Shown: positions 32,589 through 55,551, numbered from the stretch's first letter. The stretch is DNA of 64,000 nucleotides from an uncultured Thermotogae bacterium (GCA_964523545.1 CAZFZM010000010.1:1350-65349); one strand, 5' to 3'. Translations and numbers: made by a program. The notes: a model not told the origin generated them from the sequence alone.

Positions 32589-33302
32589 CTAACGGGACAA
32601 GGTGGAAACCGGGACACCGAGTCGCGTCTCCGCGACGATCCGCCCCGCCGCGACGGTGACGGCTCGATCCGACGCGTCGAGCAACGGTCCCGTTTCGTGG
32701 CTGACGACGACGGACGTCGCTCCGAGCTCGCGCCGAACCGACGCGACCAAGGCGGCCACGTCATCCTTCGCCTCGGGGTCGAGGTTCGCCGTCGGTTCGT
32801 CGAGCAGTAGGAGCTTCGCCTCTTGTGCCAAGGCACGGGCCAACAGCGCCTTCCGCTGCTGACCGCCCGAAAGACGTCCCACGGGCCTTCCCTTCAGGTC
32901 CGCAATCCCGACGGCCACGAGCGCGTCCTCGACGCGCCGGCTCTCCGACGCCGCGAAGTGGCTCCACACACTCGTCCTTCCGAACCGCGCCGTGAAGACG
33001 ACGTCCCGTACGAGGAACGGCGTATCCGCGGGAAAAAAGAGGTTCTGGGGGACGTACGCGATCCGCGAGCGGAGCCCGTGGCTTGCGGGCGTCACCTTGT
33101 CGCCCAGGACGCGAACCGTCCCGGACGCAACCGGCAGCAAACCGTTGATCACCTCGAGGATCGTCGTCTTCCCCGCCCCGTTCGGGCCGGTGATCGCGAG
33201 CTGTTCCCGTGGGGCCACCGAAAGGGTGACTCCGGCGAGCGCCGCGTGCCGCTCCCCTTCGTACGACGCCCGAACGTCGATCAGCGAGACGACGTCGTCC
33301 AT
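32589..33302 (-). CDS. Metal ABC transporter ATP-binding protein
   Basis: Track ORF trimmed to ATG 33302 (GGAGGA RBS). ITGPNGAGKTT, LSGGQQRKALLARAL, LLLLDEPTANLD. Confidence 0.85.
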   Translation of the reverse strand: MDDVVSLIDVRASYEGERHAALAGVTLSVAPREQLAITGPNGAGKTTILEVINGLLPVASGTVRVLGDKVTPASHGLRSRIAYVPQNLFFPADTPFLVRDVVFTARFGRTSVWSHFAASESRRVEDALVAVGIADLKGRPVGRLSGGQQRKALLARALAQEAKLLLLDEPTANLDPEAKDDVAALVASVRRELGATSVVVSHETGPLLDASDRAVTVAAGRIVAETRLGVPVSTLSR

Positions 33303-33718
33303 TCGAACAGTTCCTCCTCTGGGATCGTCTCGATCTCCCGCGCCCTGACGATCGGGTTCGGGCCGCGGAAGGAGTTCGCGATTTCTGGTCGAAGCTCGAT
33401 CGTGATCCAGCGCCCGTCCTCGCTCGTGAAGCGGACGCGCGGCTTCTCCTCCCCGACGACTCGCAGGTTCCCCTTCCCGGCGGTGCAACCCGAGCCGATC
33501 TGCACGCCGTCGTTGAGGCACGAAAGCGGCGGTGTCCGACCGGCCTCCGACTCGGCCCGAAGTCCGAAATAGCCCGGGTTGTTCAGCAGACGAAGGGCGA
33601 GGAGCCCCATTCGGATTCCGGCCACGAGGTACGGACCGAGATGGCCGTGCAGCAGCGTCCCGCGTTTGACCATCGCCCGAAGGTCGGCGTTGTTCGGATC
33701 GATCGTCAGCGTTTCCAC
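33281..33718 (-). CDS. FmdE-domain protein embedded in the metal-ABC operon
   Basis: Track ORF trimmed to GTG 33718 (GGAGG overlapping the upstream TAG). LLHGHLGPYLVAGIRMG and SCLNDGVQIGSGCTAGKGNL match my memory of the FmdE-domain signature. The 3' end overlaps the ATPase start by 22 nt. Confidence 0.6.
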   Translation of the reverse strand: METLTIDPNNADLRAMVKRGTLLHGHLGPYLVAGIRMGLLALRLLNNPGYFGLRAESEAGRTPPLSCLNDGVQIGSGCTAGKGNLRVVGEEKPRVRFTSEDGRWITIELRPEIANSFRGPNPIVRAREIETIPEEELFEWTTSSR

Positions 33719-33726
33719 TCGACCTC

Positions 33727-34530
33727 CTACTCGATCGGCTCGATCGCCGAGAAGAGCGCCTCGGCGTTTCGGGCAAGCAGATCGGGGACCGTCGAGGTGA
33801 ACGGCATCGCTCCGGGGAAGTTCGACAGAACGACGTGAACCGCTCCGATCTCGCGCGCCAGCTTCGCCCCGAAGTCGACGCCGCTTTGAAGGTTGTCGAT
33901 CACGAGCTGCGCGCCGGCCGTTCTGCCTGCGTCCGCCAGCACCACGAGGTCCTGCAAAGAAAGTCCCTCCGGGATCCCGTAGCTGACCGCCACGTCGAAG
34001 CCGAGCCAGGAGACGAAGCTCGCCTGCCATTCCATGCAGACCACGGCGACTCCGGAGACGCCGGCGGCCTCGGCCCTCTCCCTCAGCTCGACTCCAAGCG
34101 ACCGGAGCTGCTCGATGTAGGCGGACGCGTTGGCCGCGAAGTCGGCCGCCGCGTCCGGGAAGCGCTCCGCGAGGAGGTCCCGAATCGCCTCCACCTTCTC
34201 CACAGCAGCCTCCGGTGTGTTCCACAAACCCGGGAGCTGAACCGCCGCGTCGGCGCTCCCGGTTGCATCGGCCAACGTTTCGATCCACGGCTCGAAGCCC
34301 GAGTACAGGATCACCGAGGCGCCCAACACGGCCCTCAGATCGCTCGGGCGCAAGTCGTAGTGCGAGGGGCAGAAGCCGGACGGAATGATCGTCACCACCT
34401 CGATCGCATCTCCCCCGACGATCTGCGCAAACTCGCCGAGCACGGCGTGCGTCGACACGACCGTCGCGGCTCCGACCGCCGCACCGAGCAGCAGGACTCC
34501 GATCCCGACAAGCAGTGCGATACGCTTCAT
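33727..34530 (-). CDS. Metal ABC substrate-binding protein (TroA/ZnuA cluster-9 type) with a Cys next to the second metal-ligand His
   Basis: Signal/anchor MKRIALLVGIGVLLLGAAVGAA. STHAVLGEFAQIVGG. IPSGFCPSHYDLRPSD, where relatives usually have D-P-H. Confidence 0.75.
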   Translation of the reverse strand: MKRIALLVGIGVLLLGAAVGAATVVSTHAVLGEFAQIVGGDAIEVVTIIPSGFCPSHYDLRPSDLRAVLGASVILYSGFEPWIETLADATGSADAAVQLPGLWNTPEAAVEKVEAIRDLLAERFPDAAADFAANASAYIEQLRSLGVELRERAEAAGVSGVAVVCMEWQASFVSWLGFDVAVSYGIPEGLSLQDLVVLADAGRTAGAQLVIDNLQSGVDFGAKLAREIGAVHVVLSNFPGAMPFTSTVPDLLARNAEALFSAIEPIE

Positions 34531-34553
34531 GCTTCTCCTCCCCTTTCTGCTCT

Positions 34554-34970
34554 TTACCGGATCTTTTTTCCCGTCGACGTCCCGGTCAGCTCTCCGTGCT
34601 TGACCCCCTTGAGACCGATCAGCCGATGGGCGAGCCGCTCGATCGCTCTCGCCTCACCGCGCACCGCGAGGAATTCGAGGCAGTTTTCATCGTCGATGTG
34701 GACGTGCGTCGTGGAGATGACGGCGTCGAGCGCGTGATGCTGGATCGCGGTCAGCTTCTCCGCCAATCCGGACTTGTGGTGGTCGTACAGAAGCGTGATC
34801 ACACCGACGACTTCCTCGCCGGCGTCCCACTCGTGCTCGACCAGCTGACGTCGGATCGCGTCGCGGATCGCTTCGGACCGGTTGGTCCAGCCCCGTCGCC
34901 TACAGAGCGCATCGAACGCTTCGATGAGATCGTCTTCGATCGACACGCTGAAGCGGATCGTCTTGGCCAT
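34554..34970 (-). CDS. nikR: Nickel-responsive regulator NikR
   Basis: Track ORF trimmed to ATG 34970 (AAGGAG RBS). RHH domain RFSVSIEDDLIEAFDALCRRRGWTNRSEAIRDAIR. Nickel-site pattern QHH...THVHIDDENCLE (H-x-H-x5-C as in E. coli NikR). Confidence 0.85.
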   Translation of the reverse strand: MAKTIRFSVSIEDDLIEAFDALCRRRGWTNRSEAIRDAIRRQLVEHEWDAGEEVVGVITLLYDHHKSGLAEKLTAIQHHALDAVISTTHVHIDDENCLEFLAVRGEARAIERLAHRLIGLKGVKHGELTGTSTGKKIR

Positions 34971-35121
34971 CGGGTAATACTCCTTGCGATTTCGTAACAC
35001 CGGAAGAATACACTCCTACGCTTCCGAACGCAAGGGCGCGGTCGCCGGAACGAGAGGAAAACGGCTGAGGACTCAAAGCGCACCGACTCTCCTCCGTTGT
35101 GTCCGGTGATGCATCGAAGGT

Positions 35122-35158
35122 GAGGGCCCGGGTCGCAAGGTGCGGGTCCCGGGCCCTC
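35122..35158. repeat. Perfect 11-bp GC-rich inverted repeat, GAGGGCCCGGG-N15-CCCGGGCCCTC
   Basis: Read directly from the sequence. It lies in the divergent intergenic region between nikR and the aromatic-leader promoter. No U tract on either strand. Confidence 0.5.
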
Positions 35159-35235
35159 GTGACTCCTCAGCGTGGTAATACCGTAGCAAAGCGAGGTGGA
35201 GACGCAGTGAACCGACGATGACGCGCTTGTGGGGG

Positions 35236-35264
35236 TTGACAAGCCTCGGGTGCCGTTCTATAGT
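35236..35264 (+). promoter_or_regulatory. Near-consensus sigma70-type promoter
   Basis: TTGACA(35236-41)-17 nt-TATAGT(35259-64). Confidence 0.6.
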
Positions 35265-35273
35265 GGCCGCGTC

Positions 35274-35372
35274 ATGATAGAAGCAGCTAGTTGCCGAACC
35301 TGTCTGTTAAGATCGAACGGCGCCTGCTTCTATTACTTTTGGTACGAGCCCGGCTTCTCCGCTGCGCGCTAG
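35274..35372 (+). CDS. Candidate leader peptide (32 aa) with six consecutive aromatic codons
   Basis: The ATG lies 10 nt after the -10 box, so the mRNA is leaderless or near-leaderless. MIEAASCRTCLLRSNGACFYYFWYEPGFSAAR*. TTC TAT TAC TTT TGG TAC at 35328-35345. Below the track cut-off and in a different frame from track ORF 35291..35482. Confidence 0.5.
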   Translation: MIEAASCRTCLLRSNGACFYYFWYEPGFSAAR

Positions 35373-35410
35373 GCACGACTAGCGATCGAACAAGCAGCGA
35401 GAGGCCGGGA

Positions 35411-35444
35411 AGACGACTGCGGGAAACCGCGGTCGTTTTCTTTT
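35411..35444 (+). terminator. Intrinsic terminator inside the 5' leader (attenuator)
   Basis: ACGACTGCGG-GAAA-CCGCGGTCGT (35413-22/35427-36, one G-U pair) followed by TTTTCTTTT. It lies 165 nt upstream of the SBP start codon. Confidence 0.7.
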
Positions 35445-35608
35445 GCGGGGAGGTGACAGGAAGCGGTGCAAGAGTCGGGTAAGAGGCCCGCCCGCGAGCG
35501 CACGTCGACGGCGAGCTTCTCGCGAGCGGGCACGATCGGACGATCGGGGTCGATCGTCCAAGTTCGGTCCAAGCGGACCACCGCAAGGATAACGCGGAAG
35601 GAGAAAAA

Positions 35609-36610
35609 GTGAAACGGTTCATTGCGGTTACATTGCTAGCATTGGTTGTCGTCGGCATCGGCTTTGCGGCGGCTTCGGAGCCGCTCAAGATAGGGATCAC
35701 GAAGATCGTTGAGCATCCGGCACTCGACGCGGTCGAACAAGGGGTCATCGATACCCTGACTGCCGCCGGATACGAGGAGGGCGTCGACGTCGAGTACCTG
35801 ATCGCCAGCGCACAGGGTGACTTCGGTACGGCGATCTCGATCGCTCAGAACTTCCTGGCACAGAACGTCGACCTCGTCGTCGCCATTGCGACGCCTACGG
35901 CACAGGCGGCGGTCGAGGTCTTCCGTGGAACCGACACACCGATCATCTACGGCGCCGTGACGGATCCGGTCGGGGCCGAGCTTGTACCGAGCGCCACCGA
36001 CCCGAGCGGGAACGAAAACGTGACCGGGGTCTCGGACATGATCCCCGTCGCGGCGCACCTCCGGCTCTTGAAGGAGCTGTCGCCGGAGATCATCACGATC
36101 GGAATCGTCTTCAACCCGGGCGAAGCGAACTCGGCCATCCTGACGGACATGGCCCTCGCCGCCGCACCGAGCGTCGGCGTCGCCATCGTCACGGCAACGG
36201 CCGACTCGACGGCGAACGTGCCGCTCGCCGCCCAATCGTTGATCGGGCGGGTCGACGCGTTCTACGTGACCACGGACAACACGGTCGTTTCGGCGATCGA
36301 TTCCGTCCTCGCGGCGTCCGAGGAGGCGGGCGTTCCGTTCCTGATGGCAGACCCGACGAGCCTCGCGCAGGCGACGCTCGCGGCCGGATTCGACTACTAC
36401 GAGCACGGCTTGACCGTCGGACAGGTCGTCCTCGACGTCCTCTCCGGGGTGGGCACGGACGAGATCCCGGTCATGTTCCAGGCAACCGCCGAGGTCCACC
36501 TGAACCTCGACGCCGCCGCGCGGATCGGGTTCACCTTCCCGACGGCCGTGATCGAGCAGGCGTCGGCTATTCTGTACGGCGGAATCGTCTGGGAGCGGCA
36601 GGCGCCCTAG
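35609..36610 (+). CDS. ABC substrate-binding protein of the ABC_sub_bind family (database label: putative tryptophan/tyrosine transport system)
   Basis: GTG start with GGAAGGAG RBS. Signal peptide MKRFIAVTLLALVVVGIGFAAA. KIGITKIVEHPALDAV is typical of this family (memory-based). Confidence 0.75.
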   Translation: MKRFIAVTLLALVVVGIGFAAASEPLKIGITKIVEHPALDAVEQGVIDTLTAAGYEEGVDVEYLIASAQGDFGTAISIAQNFLAQNVDLVVAIATPTAQAAVEVFRGTDTPIIYGAVTDPVGAELVPSATDPSGNENVTGVSDMIPVAAHLRLLKELSPEIITIGIVFNPGEANSAILTDMALAAAPSVGVAIVTATADSTANVPLAAQSLIGRVDAFYVTTDNTVVSAIDSVLAASEEAGVPFLMADPTSLAQATLAAGFDYYEHGLTVGQVVLDVLSGVGTDEIPVMFQATAEVHLNLDAAARIGFTFPTAVIEQASAILYGGIVWERQAP

Positions 36611-36638
36611 GCCCGAGGCAACCGACGGAGGAGCCACG

Positions 36639-37538
36639 ATGGCTGCCCTATGGATTCACGCGCTCGAACAGGGACTCGCGTACGGCATCGCCGCGCTCGG
36701 GGTCTTCCTGACGTATCGCGTCCTGAAGTTCCCGGACCTGACGGTCGACGGGAGCTTCGTGACCGGGGCGGCCATCGCTTCCGTCCTCCTCGTCCAGTAC
36801 GGAGTCGATCCGTTCACAGTCCTCTTGGTAGCGTTCGTCGCCGGAGGGATCGCCGGCCTGATCACCGGGCTTCTGAACACGCGGCTCGGGATCACGAACC
36901 TCCTCGCCGGTGTGCTGACGATGATCATGCTCTACTCGATCAACCTGAGGATCATGGGCCGGCCGAACCTGTCGCTCCTCCGCGTCTCGACGGCGACGCG
37001 GGTGGTCGACGCCGCTTGGTCGCCGCTCGGGTCGTTCTCCGTCCTCGCGTTCATCGGGATCCTCACGATCGCGATCAAACTCCTCCTCGACGCGTTCCTC
37101 CGGACGGAGATCGGATTCGCCCTCCGGGCGACCGGCGACAGCGAGCGGATGATCACCGCGCAGGGGGTCAACACCAAGACGATGAAGATCCTCGGACTGG
37201 CCCTCTCCAACGGGCTGGTCGCCCTCTCCGGTGCGCTGGTCGCGCAGTACTCCGGATTCGCCGACGTGGGAATGGGGCTCGGCACGATCGTCACCGGGCT
37301 GGCCGCCGTGATCATCGGCGGGACGCTGATCCGGTCGAGCCGCGTCGGATGGATGACGGCGAGCGTCCTTCTCGGTTCCCTCGTCTACCGGGTCGCGGTC
37401 ATCCTGGCGCTCCGCTACGGATACGTGATCGGATTCCAGGCGAGCGATCTGAAGCTGATCACCTCGCTGCTCGTGATCCTCGCGCTCGTCGTCCCGTACC
37501 TCCGGGAGCGCCGGATGAGGAAGGTCAGCGCATGCTGA
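36639..37538 (+). CDS. ABC permease partner of the preceding SBP
   Basis: MAALWIHALEQGLAYGIAALGVFLTYRVLKFPDLTVDGSFVTG. Multi-TM. The stop overlaps the ATPase start. Confidence 0.8.
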   Translation: MAALWIHALEQGLAYGIAALGVFLTYRVLKFPDLTVDGSFVTGAAIASVLLVQYGVDPFTVLLVAFVAGGIAGLITGLLNTRLGITNLLAGVLTMIMLYSINLRIMGRPNLSLLRVSTATRVVDAAWSPLGSFSVLAFIGILTIAIKLLLDAFLRTEIGFALRATGDSERMITAQGVNTKTMKILGLALSNGLVALSGALVAQYSGFADVGMGLGTIVTGLAAVIIGGTLIRSSRVGWMTASVLLGSLVYRVAVILALRYGYVIGFQASDLKLITSLLVILALVVPYLRERRMRKVSAC

Positions 37539-38320
37539 GACTCGAGCGCGTCTCGAAGAGCTTCCACACCGGCGCCGACCGAGTCGTCGCGATCCGGGAG
37601 ACCGACCTGTCCCTCGACGAGGGAGACTTCCTGACGATCATCGGCTCGAACGGTGCCGGGAAGAGCACGTTGCTCAACCTGATCGCCGGGACGTACCCAC
37701 CGACCTCCGGGCTGATCCTGCTGAAGGGCGTCAACCTGACCGGCGTCCCCGCGCATCGACGGGCCCGGCGGATCGGTCGGATCGTCCAGGATCCCCTGGC
37801 CGGGACGGCGCCGTCGATGACGGTGGCCGAGAACCTCGCGCTGGCGATGAAGCGCGGACGGCGCGGTCTTCGCTCGGCGCTTCCGCGACGGCTACGCCGG
37901 AGGTTTCGCGAGCAGCTCGCAGCGCTGAACGTCGGCCTGGAGGATCGCCTCCGATGCCGCGTCGATCTCCTCTCCGGCGGGGAGCGCCAAGCGCTGGCGG
38001 TGCTGATGGTGACCCTCGTCCCGCCCGAGATCCTCCTCCTCGACGAGCACACCGCGGCGCTGGATCCGAGCAACGCCGCGATGATCGTTCGCCTGACCCG
38101 ATCGTTCGTCGAGCGGCTCGGCCTGACGACGCTGATGGTCACCCACAACATGGAACAGGCGATCGAGGTCGGAACGCGGCTGATCATGATGCACAAAGGC
38201 GAGATCATCGAAGAGCTGCGCGGCGAGGAGAAGGCCCGGGCGACCGTCCCCCAGCTCGTCAACCTCTTCTCGCGCCACCACGTCGTCGACGACGAGCTCC
38301 TGCTCGAGCGGGTGGTGTGA
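37532..38320 (+). CDS. ABC ATP-binding protein of the same importer
   Basis: In-frame tail of track ORF 36650..38320 from ATG 37532. IIGSNGAGKSTLLNLIAG, LSGGERQALAV, LLLDEHTAALD. Confidence 0.85.
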   Translation: MLRLERVSKSFHTGADRVVAIRETDLSLDEGDFLTIIGSNGAGKSTLLNLIAGTYPPTSGLILLKGVNLTGVPAHRRARRIGRIVQDPLAGTAPSMTVAENLALAMKRGRRGLRSALPRRLRRRFREQLAALNVGLEDRLRCRVDLLSGGERQALAVLMVTLVPPEILLLDEHTAALDPSNAAMIVRLTRSFVERLGLTTLMVTHNMEQAIEVGTRLIMMHKGEIIEELRGEEKARATVPQLVNLFSRHHVVDDELLLERVV

Positions 38321-38432
38321 CCCGCCAGCGCGCCACCAGCAGCACGACCATCTCCGTCCAGGCAGCGTCTGTCCACGTTCGTCCAAGCTTCCCTTCCGTA
38401 ATCTCGTAGGCGAGTTCGGTACCGAATTGGAG

Positions 38433-38462
38433 TTGAGACGCCGGTCGTGGACAACCTATACT
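38433..38462 (+). promoter_or_regulatory. Promoter giving a near-leaderless response-regulator mRNA
   Basis: TTGAGA(38433-38)-18 nt-TATACT(38457-62). The ATG at 38475 has no SD. Confidence 0.4.
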
Positions 38463-38474
38463 GCCCCAAAGGCC

Positions 38475-39158
38475 ATGGCAACGAAGATCTTGGTGGTCGA
38501 CGACGAACCCTGGGTCGTTCAGGCGATACGGAGCTACCTCGAGGAAGCCCACTTCGAGGTGGTCAGTGCGTACGACGGCGCGGAGGCGCTTGCGCAGTTC
38601 AGCCAACACCAGCCGGATCTGGTCATCCTCGACTGGATGCTCCCCGAGATGGACGGCCTCTCCGTAACGCACCGAATTCGAGAGATCTCGAGCGTCCCGA
38701 TCATCATGCTGACCGCGAAGGTCGACGAGGAGGACCGGATCGAGGGTCTGGAGACCGGCGCCGACGACTACGTCATCAAGCCATTTTCCGCTAGGGAGCT
38801 GGAGGCCCGCGTCCGCGCCGTCCTCCGCCGCTCGACGGGGAAGACGCCGCCCGTTCTGGAGGTCGGAGACCTCCGACTGGATCAGTCACAGCGACGGCTG
38901 TGGGTCTTCGGGGACCCGGTCGAGCTGACGGCGATGGAGTTCGACCTTCTCGCGTTTCTGATGACGTACCCCGGCCGCGTGTTCACCCGGCTCGAACTCC
39001 TCGAGGCGGTCCGTGGCGAGACCTACGAGAGCTTCGAGCGATCGGTCGACTCGCACATCAAGCGGCTCCGTCAGAAGATCGAACCGGATCCGCGGAACCC
39101 TCGCTTCGTTCTGACGGTCTTCGGCATCGGCTACAAGCTGGCGAGGGAGGAGGGCTGA
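38475..39158 (+). CDS. OmpR-family response regulator
   Basis: KILVVDDEPW, DLVILDWMLPEMDG. C-terminal wHTH (LTAMEFDLLAFLM, GIGYKL). Confidence 0.85.
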   Translation: MATKILVVDDEPWVVQAIRSYLEEAHFEVVSAYDGAEALAQFSQHQPDLVILDWMLPEMDGLSVTHRIREISSVPIIMLTAKVDEEDRIEGLETGADDYVIKPFSARELEARVRAVLRRSTGKTPPVLEVGDLRLDQSQRRLWVFGDPVELTAMEFDLLAFLMTYPGRVFTRLELLEAVRGETYESFERSVDSHIKRLRQKIEPDPRNPRFVLTVFGIGYKLAREEG

Positions 39159-40495
39159 TGCGGTTCCTGGGGCGGATGTCCTTCCAGGCGAAGCTCCTCG
39201 TCGCGTTCGTCCTGATCGTCTTCTTGACGTCGTTGGCCGGGTATCTGTTCATCAACCAGTCGGTGAAGCGGGCCTTCTCCGAGTTCACGGTAACCACGTA
39301 CACGCCGCAGGAGCGGGCCGTCCTTCAGCTCGTCCGCGCGTTCTACGAGCAGACGGGGAGCCTCGACGCCGTCATCGCGTTCCTCGAGAGGGGGCGGCGT
39401 GAGGTCCCGGTCCTTCTCGTCGATTCGGATCGCACCGTCGTCTATGCCCCGGATCCTCGAATCGTCGGTCGCCGTCTGTCGGTGGACCAGCTGGAAGAAG
39501 GGGTGACGATCGAGCTGGCCGACGGGGAGATCTGGACGGTGATCCCGTCCCGTGTCGTCCTCGGTCAGGCGATCCTCGAAGAGGGATTCCTCCGGACCAC
39601 CCGCCGATCGCTCTGGCTCTCCGGTCTCGTCGCGATGGTCGTCGCGATCCTCCTCTCGGTCCTCCTCCTTCGACAGGTCACCCGGCCGCTTCGGCGCCTC
39701 GACACAGCGACCCGTCGGATCGCTCGGGGGGAGTTCGACGAACGGGTCGGGGTCCACACGTCCGACGAGATCGGGCGCCTCGCCCAGTCGTTCAACGAGA
39801 TGGCCGAGAGCCTCGATCGGGCCGAACGGACGAAGAAGCGGATGATCGCCGACGTCTCCCACGAGCTTCGAACCCCGCTCGCCGCCGTTCGCAGCGCTCT
39901 CGAAGGCCTCCGGGACGGGCTGATCGAACCGACGCCGGAGACCCTCGCCTCCCTGCACGACAAGATCCTTCTGACGACCCGGTTGGTTCGCGATCTACAC
40001 CAGCTGACGCTCGCCGACGCCGGACGGCTGTCGGTCCATCCGGCCCCGTGCCGAATCGACGCGGTCGTCGACACGATCGTCGAAACGATCGGCGTCCAGC
40101 TCGAGGATTCGAGCCTCCGACTCGACAAGAGGATCGCCGCCAACCTGCCTCCGGTCCTCGTCGACCGCCAGCGGATCGAGCAGGTCTTTCTCAACCTCCT
40201 CGCCAACGCGATCCGCCACACGCCCGAGGGAGGCACGATTACGATCTCCGCCGCCGAACACGACGGAGGGATCCTGACGAGCATCTGCGACACCGGTCCC
40301 GGTCTGACGGAGTCCGATCTCGCCCACGTCTTCGATCGGTTCTACCGGGCCGACGACGCGCGAACGAGCGACGGTGGAGCGGGACTCGGGCTCTCGATCG
40401 CCAAGGCGCTCGTCGAAGCGCAGGGAGGGAGAATCTGGGCGGAGAACCAACCGTCCGGCGGGGCGTGCTTCCACGTCCTCCTGCCGACGGAGTAG
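39158..40495 (+). CDS. Sensor histidine kinase (2 TM, HAMP, HisKA, HATPase_c)
   Basis: The start overlaps the RR stop (TGATG). H-box ADVSHELRTPLAAV. NLLANAIRHTPEGG, DTGPGL, GGAGLGLSIAK. Confidence 0.85.
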   Translation: MRFLGRMSFQAKLLVAFVLIVFLTSLAGYLFINQSVKRAFSEFTVTTYTPQERAVLQLVRAFYEQTGSLDAVIAFLERGRREVPVLLVDSDRTVVYAPDPRIVGRRLSVDQLEEGVTIELADGEIWTVIPSRVVLGQAILEEGFLRTTRRSLWLSGLVAMVVAILLSVLLLRQVTRPLRRLDTATRRIARGEFDERVGVHTSDEIGRLAQSFNEMAESLDRAERTKKRMIADVSHELRTPLAAVRSALEGLRDGLIEPTPETLASLHDKILLTTRLVRDLHQLTLADAGRLSVHPAPCRIDAVVDTIVETIGVQLEDSSLRLDKRIAANLPPVLVDRQRIEQVFLNLLANAIRHTPEGGTITISAAEHDGGILTSICDTGPGLTESDLAHVFDRFYRADDARTSDGGAGLGLSIAKALVEAQGGRIWAENQPSGGACFHVLLPTE

Positions 40496-55389: not shown

Positions 55390-55465
55390 TGGTGGGTGGT
55401 ACAGGGCTCGAACCTGTGACCTCATGCACGTCAAGCATGCGCTCTCCCAGCTGAGCTAACCACCC
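55390..55465 (-). tRNA. tRNA-Val (anticodon GAC), CCA encoded
   Basis: Minus strand GGGUGGUUAGCUCAGCUGGGAGAGCGCAUGCUUGACGUGCAUGAGGUCACAGGUUCGAGCCCUGUACCACCCACCA folds as a canonical 76-nt cloverleaf. Anticodon loop UUGACGU. Confidence 0.95.
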
Positions 55466-55476
55466 ATCTGTCTCTC

Positions 55477-55551
55477 TGGAGGCGGCGACCGGATTCGAAC
55501 CGGTGAATCAGGGATTTGCAGTCCCTTGCCTTACCACTTGGCTACGCCGCC
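55477..55551 (-). tRNA. tRNA-Cys (anticodon GCA), CCA encoded
   Basis: Minus strand GGCGGCGUAGCCAAGUGGUAAGGCAAGGGACUGCAAAUCCCUGAUUCACCGGUUCGAAUCCGGUCGCCGCCUCCA. 75-nt cloverleaf. Anticodon loop CUGCAAA. Confidence 0.95.

Follow-up and report, generated by a model that had tools for sequence, protein, structure and literature searches.

A conserved leader with a run of aromatic codons precedes an ABC importer operon in uncultured bacteria: a candidate ribosome-mediated attenuator

A leader open reading frame, three hairpins and an importer operon

We analysed a stretch of 64,000 nucleotides (nt) of DNA deposited as an uncultured Thermotogae bacterium (GCA_964523545.1 CAZFZM010000010.1:1350-65349; hereafter the window), and focus on the leader that precedes a putative ATP-binding cassette (ABC) importer operon on its + strand. 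The window belongs to Candidatus Bipolaricaulota (Acetothermia), as do the closest genomes, which are metagenome-assembled. An earlier note, made from the sequence alone, had proposed that a short open reading frame (ORF) rich in aromatic codons forms, together with a terminator, an attenuator of the trp-leader kind that responds to aromatic amino acids. The locus consists of the following parts.

35236 to 35264, + strand: sigma-70-type promoter (TTGACA at 35236-41, 17-nt spacer, TATAGT at 35259-64; score 11/12)
35274 to 35372, + strand: leader ORF of 32 codons plus stop (35370-72), encoding MIEAASCRTCLLRSNGACFYYFWYEPGFSAAR; ATG 9 nt past the -10 element
35328 to 35345, + strand: aromatic run F Y Y F W Y (TTC TAT TAC TTT TGG TAC)
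35275 to 35335, + strand: hairpin A, in which the 5' end of the messenger RNA (mRNA), 35275-86, including the UG of the AUG, is paired with the first aromatic codons (35324-35)
35349 to 35409, + strand: hairpin B, with a 5' arm (35349-65) made of the last 8 codons, a 3' arm at 35394-409 and the stop codon inside an apical hairpin (35367-84)
35410 to 35444, + strand: intrinsic terminator T, with stem ACGACTGCGG (35413-22) / CCGCGGTCGT (35427-36), GAAA loop and T tract TTTTCTTTT (35436-44)
35445 to 35608, + strand: conserved, structured non-coding spacer of ~160 nt, with a perfect Shine-Dalgarno-like GGAGGTGA (35449-56) right after the T tract
35609 to 36610, + strand: substrate-binding protein, PF04392 (ABC_sub_bind; Pfam E-value 2.4e-68)
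36639 to 37538, + strand: ABC permease, PF02653 (BPD_transp_2; gene call and Pfam match on the identical contig L001)
about 37532 to 38320, + strand: ABC ATPase, PF00005 (Pfam match, gene call)

The promoter, the ORF and the run were all confirmed in the sequence at the positions that the earlier note had claimed for them. A promoter scan of 34000-39500 returned only two promoter-like sites, one of which is the leader promoter, and none between T and the operon. With the ATG 9 nt past the -10 element, there is no room for a Shine-Dalgarno sequence before the leader ORF. The FYYFWY run is the sole run of at least five aromatic codons in the six frames of the window. Two of its codons, TAT and TTT, had been judged rare by eye, and counting bore this out: in the long ORFs of the window, TTT accounts for 10.5% of the codons for Phe and TAT for 15.7% of those for Tyr, against 37% and 66%, respectively, in the leaders described below, an enrichment of 3-4 fold.

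All folding in this study was thermodynamic. The minimum-energy fold of 35270-35450 comprises exactly the three hairpins A, B and T, with the terminator hairpin at 35410-35441 (z-score -6.2; 0/200 shuffles equally stable), and thereby reproduces the pairing of the start codon region with the first aromatic codons, the long second hairpin and the terminator, all of which had first been seen by eye. The purine-rich 5' flank of T is able to prolong the stem into the T tract. A simple terminator scan did not have T among its hits, presumably because the stem runs into the T tract and leaves too few unpaired T residues for the rule of the scan. Rfam, which could have recognized a T-box or riboswitch here, gave no such match: no covariance model reached its gathering score in the window, and neither the leader families (Trp_leader, Phe_leader and others) nor the T-box gave a relevant match in 35000-35700 at E-values up to 10.

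The downstream genes connect the locus to aromatic amino acids. Structures have been solved for three relatives of the binding protein; these are PDB entries 3LKV, 6HNI and 3LFT, which hold Phe, Tyr and Trp, respectively, the preference being set by two residues (PMC6816091). In an alignment, the window protein has Asp in place of Glu-263 of Clostridioides difficile CD0873 and Tyr at Tyr-279, a weak hint that its preference may lie towards Tyr or Phe. CD0873 is itself a relative of the binding protein and imports tyrosine for fermentation (PMC6816091). In Streptococcus suis, a system of the same three genes takes up tryptophan, and a T-box induces it when Trp is limiting (PMC9382623). The tie between this transporter family and aromatic amino acids, which the earlier note had drawn, is thus upheld, and the binding-protein family leads us to predict that the operon acts on the same amino acids that the leader codons specify. 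A 556-amino-acid ORF is also listed for 36650-38320, but it is an artefact of the reading frame; the region is in fact shared by the permease gene (36639-37538) and the ATPase gene, which starts at about 37532.

Conservation of the leader in orthologous loci

Orthologous loci were gathered from genome and metagenome collections. Forty-three had enough upstream DNA, and these gave 39 distinct leader RNAs; many of the orthologues are closely related, and the locus counts are not independent events. All 43 loci, whose binding proteins are 65-96% identical, carry a TTGACA-17-TATAGT-type promoter, an ATG, an aromatic ORF and hairpins A, B and T, so that the combination of short ORF, aromatic run and terminator first noticed in the window recurs upstream of every orthologous binding-protein gene examined. 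The promoter consensus was kept in 35 orthologous promoters, the best-conserved columns being the -35 and -10 elements. No such leader was found upstream of proteobacterial homologues (37-45% identical) or of two more distant relatives.

The leader ORFs of these loci are 25-34 codons long and contain 4-6 consecutive aromatic codons. Position-specific residue counts gave a core of F-[Y/F]-W-[Y/F]-W, mostly with F or Y as the next residue, and Trp fixed at two positions in 32/39 leaders. The distance from the ATG to TGGNNNTGG is 54, 57, 60 or 63 nt, only multiples of 3, and the alignment gaps within the ORF are triplets. The aromatic class is kept through two-base changes, such as TAC to TGG or the reverse, and TAT is also found for TTT. 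Taken together, the preservation of the frame across insertions and deletions, the class-keeping substitutions and the enrichment of rare codons show that the leader ORF is read codon by codon. Within the peptide, conservation is confined to the aromatic run: the N-terminal half varies freely, and its conserved parts are explained by RNA pairing. The distance from run to stop codon varies from 2 to 9 codons. None of these peptides was present in a collection of 15 billion proteins.

The ATG lies 6-9 nt past the -10 element in 43/43 loci, mostly 9, which leaves at most about 0-3 nt of 5' leader and no Shine-Dalgarno sequence. The mRNAs of these loci (clade 1) are therefore predicted to be leaderless or to have a leader of 0-3 nt.

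Covariation of the three helices

Covariation was tested on a sequence-only alignment of 36 leaders. Standard pairs were formed in 85% of cells, against at most 59% with slid partners, and both sides had changed in 26/40 pairs. Compensatory cells numbered 106, compared with 37.8 +/- 6.4 in shuffles, and 0/500 shuffles reached the observed value. Helix A, which adopts the same pairing in every orthologue, showed both-side changes in 8/12 pairs and helix B in 13/14; helix T was 95.8% paired and contained compensatory changes. The hairpin of T, of 9-14 pairs, precedes a tract of the form U4-5 C U4-5. Its conserved U-G pairs would turn into C-A mismatches on the opposite strand, which indicates that the element acts as + strand RNA. 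Hairpins B and T abut, with a gap of 0 nt in 30/39 leaders and of at most 5 nt in 39/39. An all-against-all search of column pairs in the sequence alignment for extra helices returned only 4-pair chance helices.

The 5' strand of A shares k-mers with the 3' strand of B: AAGCAGC in the window (35279-35286 versus 35391-35398), AGCGCGAAG in locus L006 and GCGAGAAG in locus L009. The longest common substring was 5.97, against 5.05 in shuffles (p = 0.003, relatedness ignored). These k-mers may indicate cross-pairing between A and B, and they yielded no coherent switch.

A second clade with unrelated leader sequences

The same arrangement was found in a second clade of AT-rich Acetothermia genomes, in which the binding protein is ~45% identical. 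The leader sequences are unrelated to those of clade 1; they contain Tyr/Trp runs and keep the A-B-T order. The ORFs end in ...GYTAGYTYYWYIN, ...SYTYYRYE, ...SYTYYYWHK, ...HYSWYYWYL, ...GYIYSYWYRRF and ...DYAYTYWYHSF, each followed by the stop codon. The run is paired with upstream ORF sequence, the stop codon lies at the 5' base of B, and the terminator begins 1-5 nt past B. The long spacer is missing. The peptides of this clade are present, without names, in the 15-billion-protein collection.

The clade-2 leaders have a 5' untranslated region (UTR) of 30-40 nt with a Shine-Dalgarno sequence, from which it follows that leaderlessness is not essential, and that the run plus A-B-T is. The earlier proposal of leaderless translation would accordingly hold as a feature of clade 1, where the ATG is fixed close to the promoter, and not as a requirement of the element.

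All clade-2 leader ORFs (L016, about 2810-2820; L161-L165) also contain an in-frame GAGGTGAT, a perfect complement of the anti-Shine-Dalgarno sequence that encodes the peptide E-V-I, 13-18 codons ahead of the stop. Clade 1 has the motif past the terminator instead.

Geometry of the element and a proposed mechanism

We examined the conserved geometry on the assumption that a ribosome opens the mRNA to 13 nt past the first base of its P site, which rests on established footprint and helicase data. Across 43 leaders from both clades, the number of B pairs opened (of ~20) was 0 with the A site at the first aromatic codon, 0.3 at the middle one, 3.7 at the last one and 18.3 at the stop codon. By this geometry, a ribosome held on the first four aromatic codons opens hairpin A and leaves B intact, and a ribosome at the stop codon has unwound nearly the whole 5' strand of B. 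The distance from run to B is 0-7 nt in most leaders. The stop codon shifts between the base and the apex of B among lineages, and its exact place is thus immaterial if the completing ribosome enters B. Hairpin B therefore holds the position of a classical antiterminator, intact on stalling and destroyed on completion, without sharing nucleotides of the terminator core.

These observations incline us, with moderate confidence, to regard ribosome-mediated attenuation as probable: starvation would induce read-through, and the importer would be tied to the supply of charged Phe-, Tyr- and Trp-transfer RNA (tRNA). Transcription would start at the strong promoter, and the first 100 nt would be translated at once, without a Shine-Dalgarno sequence in clade 1. 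As there is no other recognizable promoter for the operon, expression would come only from read-through of T. When aromatic amino acids are scarce, the ribosome would stall on the run, B would persist, T would be weakened and the importer would be made. When they are plentiful, the ribosome would enter B and free the RNA just upstream of T, allowing efficient termination.

Our best guess for the link between B and T is that the rigid B helix, fused to the base of T, would hinder the closing of the lowest terminator pairs in the exit channel of RNA polymerase. B may also withhold the last purines that prolong T into the U tract. According to a recent preprint, termination becomes more efficient when a terminator stem is immediately preceded by purines with which the U tract can pair. 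The start codon is buried in hairpin A, and the U-rich run comes after it; we speculate that this hairpin may make the polymerase pause or may silence transcripts on which no ribosome was ever loaded.

The leader has four of the defining features of a leader-peptide attenuator, and the search for an antiterminator described below was negative; we therefore set it apart from the trp-type family. It is conceivable that it embodies a new logic, in which a hairpin preserved by stalling disables the terminator through fusion to its base, by exit-channel sterics or a put-like effect, and unwinding by the ribosome switches termination on, and that this logic was kept in two Bipolaricaulota clades whose leader sequences are unrelated. 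We offer this more specific proposal tentatively, and hold it to be doubtful.

Search for an antiterminator

Several results weigh against attenuation of this kind. In equilibrium folds with the ribosome footprint masked, a check that the earlier note had suggested, T formed at 90-100% whatever the position of the ribosome. The Escherichia coli trpL leader, whose control sequence was entered by hand, was equally flat in this test, with its terminator at 98% throughout. The masked-equilibrium test is thus without power, and we therefore folded transcripts cut before the 3' arm of the terminator. In the cut trpL transcripts, pairing of the terminator 5' arm rose from 0.08 to 0.66-0.74 only with the A site on the Trp codons or the next codon, as expected for its antiterminator.

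No stall-specific pairing of the T 5' arm was detected in cut transcripts of the 39 leaders. The probability that this arm is paired was 0.49 with no ribosome, 0.63 with a ribosome on the N-terminal codons, 0.56 on the aromatic run, 0.50 after the run and 0.51 at the stop codon. The arm takes whichever strand is free, which is the linker on ribosome-free RNA (0.43) and the 5' tail on RNA with a stalled ribosome (0.48). Neither partner withstood comparison with shuffled sequences. The freed 5' tail, as a stall partner, scored 0.49 versus 0.48 (p = 0.59), and the linker (the second half of the run), pairing with the T 5' arm around B, 0.44 versus 0.50. Clade 2, whose AT-richness lowers the background, was equally flat. 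A switch built like that of trpL, as the earlier note had envisaged, thus found no partner for the T 5' arm in a test that detects the trpL antiterminator. In addition, T is strong by itself, with an energy of -20 to -28 kcal/mol.

The weakest step is how an intact B would lower termination. We infer the steric effect, and our literature search found no paper showing one of this kind. Furthermore, transcripts that escape translation would, under this model, retain B as well and be read through. This runs counter to classical superattenuation, unless such transcripts are dealt with by hairpin A.

Three other candidate interactions were rejected. In a duplex scan of the T 5' arm against all upstream windows, the best sites were no stronger than those of shuffled arms. 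Prolongation of the terminator by the freed 3' strand of B gave the same gain as shuffled strands. The decamer ACGACTAGCG (35375-84) is present as the earlier note had described; its suggested role as a competitor for the T 3' arm was not supported, since it can form only ~6 pairs and is not conserved beyond the closest relatives.

Alternative explanations

The promoter, ORF and T could instead constitute an independent gene, specifying a ~170 nt small RNA and/or an aromatic-tailed peptide that acts in trans, with T constitutive, the importer expressed by leaky read-through and any control exerted by the structured spacer. A strong terminator, a search that found no ribosome-dependent alternative fold and the presence of a further conserved, structured stretch that separates T from the operon would all suit such a gene, and trans functions of attenuator-derived RNAs and leader peptides are known from Sinorhizobium. 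We nevertheless think this rather unlikely. Of the peptide, only the aromatic run is conserved, the element always stands directly upstream of this one operon in two clades, and clade 2 has A-B-T without the long spacer. An independent gene also gives no role to the conserved placement of run and stop codon relative to B.

A second possibility is that the logic is inverted, so that abundant aromatic amino acids allow translation to unwind B and thereby weaken T; the substrates would then induce the importer for catabolism or fermentation, and stalling would be the off state. The geometry is equally compatible with B helping T, and the import of tyrosine for fermentation by CD0873 provides a precedent for such a use. 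However, with the ribosome at the stop codon, the freed 3' strand of B is no competitor of T, which forms with a probability of 94-100%, and freed purines beside the terminator are expected to strengthen it. Leaders with codon runs are generally known as sensors of shortage, and the one characterized regulator of this transporter family induces on Trp limitation. On balance, we consider the inverted logic improbable.

We assign a similarly low likelihood to an arrest peptide, in which F-[Y/F]-W-[Y/F]-W would stall the ribosome from the exit tunnel, possibly as a TnaC-like sensor of a free aromatic amino acid and not of tRNA charging. The residue order is conserved beyond aromatic class, with Trp at two fixed positions in 32/39 leaders, which is more than codon counting needs. 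Yet the pattern is broken by FYYFWY in the window itself, by FYSFWY in locus L119 and by clade 2, where SYTYYRYE, for example, is without Trp. A run-to-stop distance of 2 to 9 codons is unfit for a TnaC-type stall at termination, and the enrichment of rare codons points to decoding speed.

Finally, a purely RNA-level regulator with an incidental ORF, whether a leader that binds a ligand or protein or a put-like RNA that modifies RNA polymerase, would agree with three well-conserved, covarying helices and with a search that found no ribosome-dependent RNA alternative, but is very improbable given the frame kept over four ORF lengths, the start codon fixed beside the promoter (and supplied with a proper Shine-Dalgarno sequence in clade 2), the two-base substitutions that keep the aromatic class and the absence of an Rfam match.

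Comparison with known leaders

The ribosome-mediated attenuation that we favour shares several properties with E. coli trpL, pheL and hisL. There, too, a short ORF contains the regulating codons, the ORF is separated from the operon by an intrinsic terminator, and a completing ribosome covers the next hairpin, which a stalled one does not. Unlike those leaders, the element described here has no detected antiterminator sharing a strand with the terminator, and its regulatory codons are paired, as the 3' arm of a hairpin, with the very 5' end of the mRNA. Its run mixes three amino acids, its operon encodes an importer and not biosynthesis, and it has no Rfam leader match.

Leaderless leader peptides have been described in Streptomyces and Corynebacterium, including one before a metNIQ importer and an F-Y-F leader before aroF (PMC8079986, PMC4046766). 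The Streptomyces lividans trpL1, leuL, ilvL and metL-metNIQ leaders and the Corynebacterium glutamicum aroF leader resemble the clade-1 leader in translation without a Shine-Dalgarno sequence, in one case before an ABC importer and in one case with mixed aromatic codons. They differ in phylum, sequence and operon family, and the element here is found at more than 40 loci in two clades, with three fixed hairpins and a hairpin that abuts the terminator; several of the actinobacterial leaderless cases are without a clear terminator. Our literature searches turned up no report of such a leader, either from Bipolaricaulota or upstream of this transporter family, which fits the earlier claim that no leader-peptide attenuator had been described for the family; the general concept is known from Actinobacteria.

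The Trp T-box before trpXYZ in S. suis serves the same transporter family and likewise combines a response to tRNA charging (as proposed here) with a terminator in the 5' leader. Unlike our candidate, a T-box works without translation, by direct binding of uncharged tRNA, and the leader described here has no T-box features. The tna operon, which includes an aromatic-amino-acid transporter, is also preceded by a Trp-containing leader peptide, TnaC. TnaC responds to free Trp, stalls at the stop codon and blocks Rho, unlike the element here, with its intrinsic terminator, variable stop spacing and several aromatic codons.

If the proposed attenuation is correct, leader-peptide control would extend to an uncultured phylum and to an importer family that is under T-boxes in Firmicutes, which would make this transporter a clear example of convergent regulation. 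Operons annotated as 'putative ABC transport' would be predicted to encode Phe, Tyr and Trp importers independently of protein homology, which bears on amino-acid dependence in Bipolaricaulota. A hairpin that abuts the terminator without an overlapping antiterminator also raises the question of how a translating ribosome could modulate an intrinsic terminator that it never reaches.

The spacer and neighbouring features

In the spacer between T and the operon, one helix (CCCGCYCG/CGRGCGGG) is nearly invariant and two hairpins are lineage-specific; an invariant CAAGGATA precedes the true Shine-Dalgarno sequence of the binding-protein gene by about 20 nt. No conserved ORF was found between T and the operon, and the spacer (35445-35608) had no Rfam match. 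It is possible that the spacer is a second regulatory element. Pairing of the aromatic region with the conserved post-terminator GGAGGTG, suggested by a fold of the whole UTR, was no better than in shuffles.

Upstream of the leader, a divergent cluster on the - strand (32589-35000) encodes nikR (RHH and NikR C-terminal domain), a ZnuA-like binding protein, an ABC ATPase and, as seen on the identical contig L001, an FmdE-domain protein; the cluster probably serves the uptake of nickel or another metal. Between nikR and the leader promoter, at 35122-35158, there is a GC-rich hairpin of 11 pairs, GAGGGCCCGGG / CCCGGGCCCTC; it lacks a T tract, and its Rfam matches are weak and at chance level only. 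Directly 3' of the transporter are genes for an OmpR-type response regulator and a HAMP/HisKA histidine kinase (38427-40495), with a promoter-like site of their own at 38433-62. Two adjacent tRNA genes are located further downstream, at 55393-55551 on the - strand.

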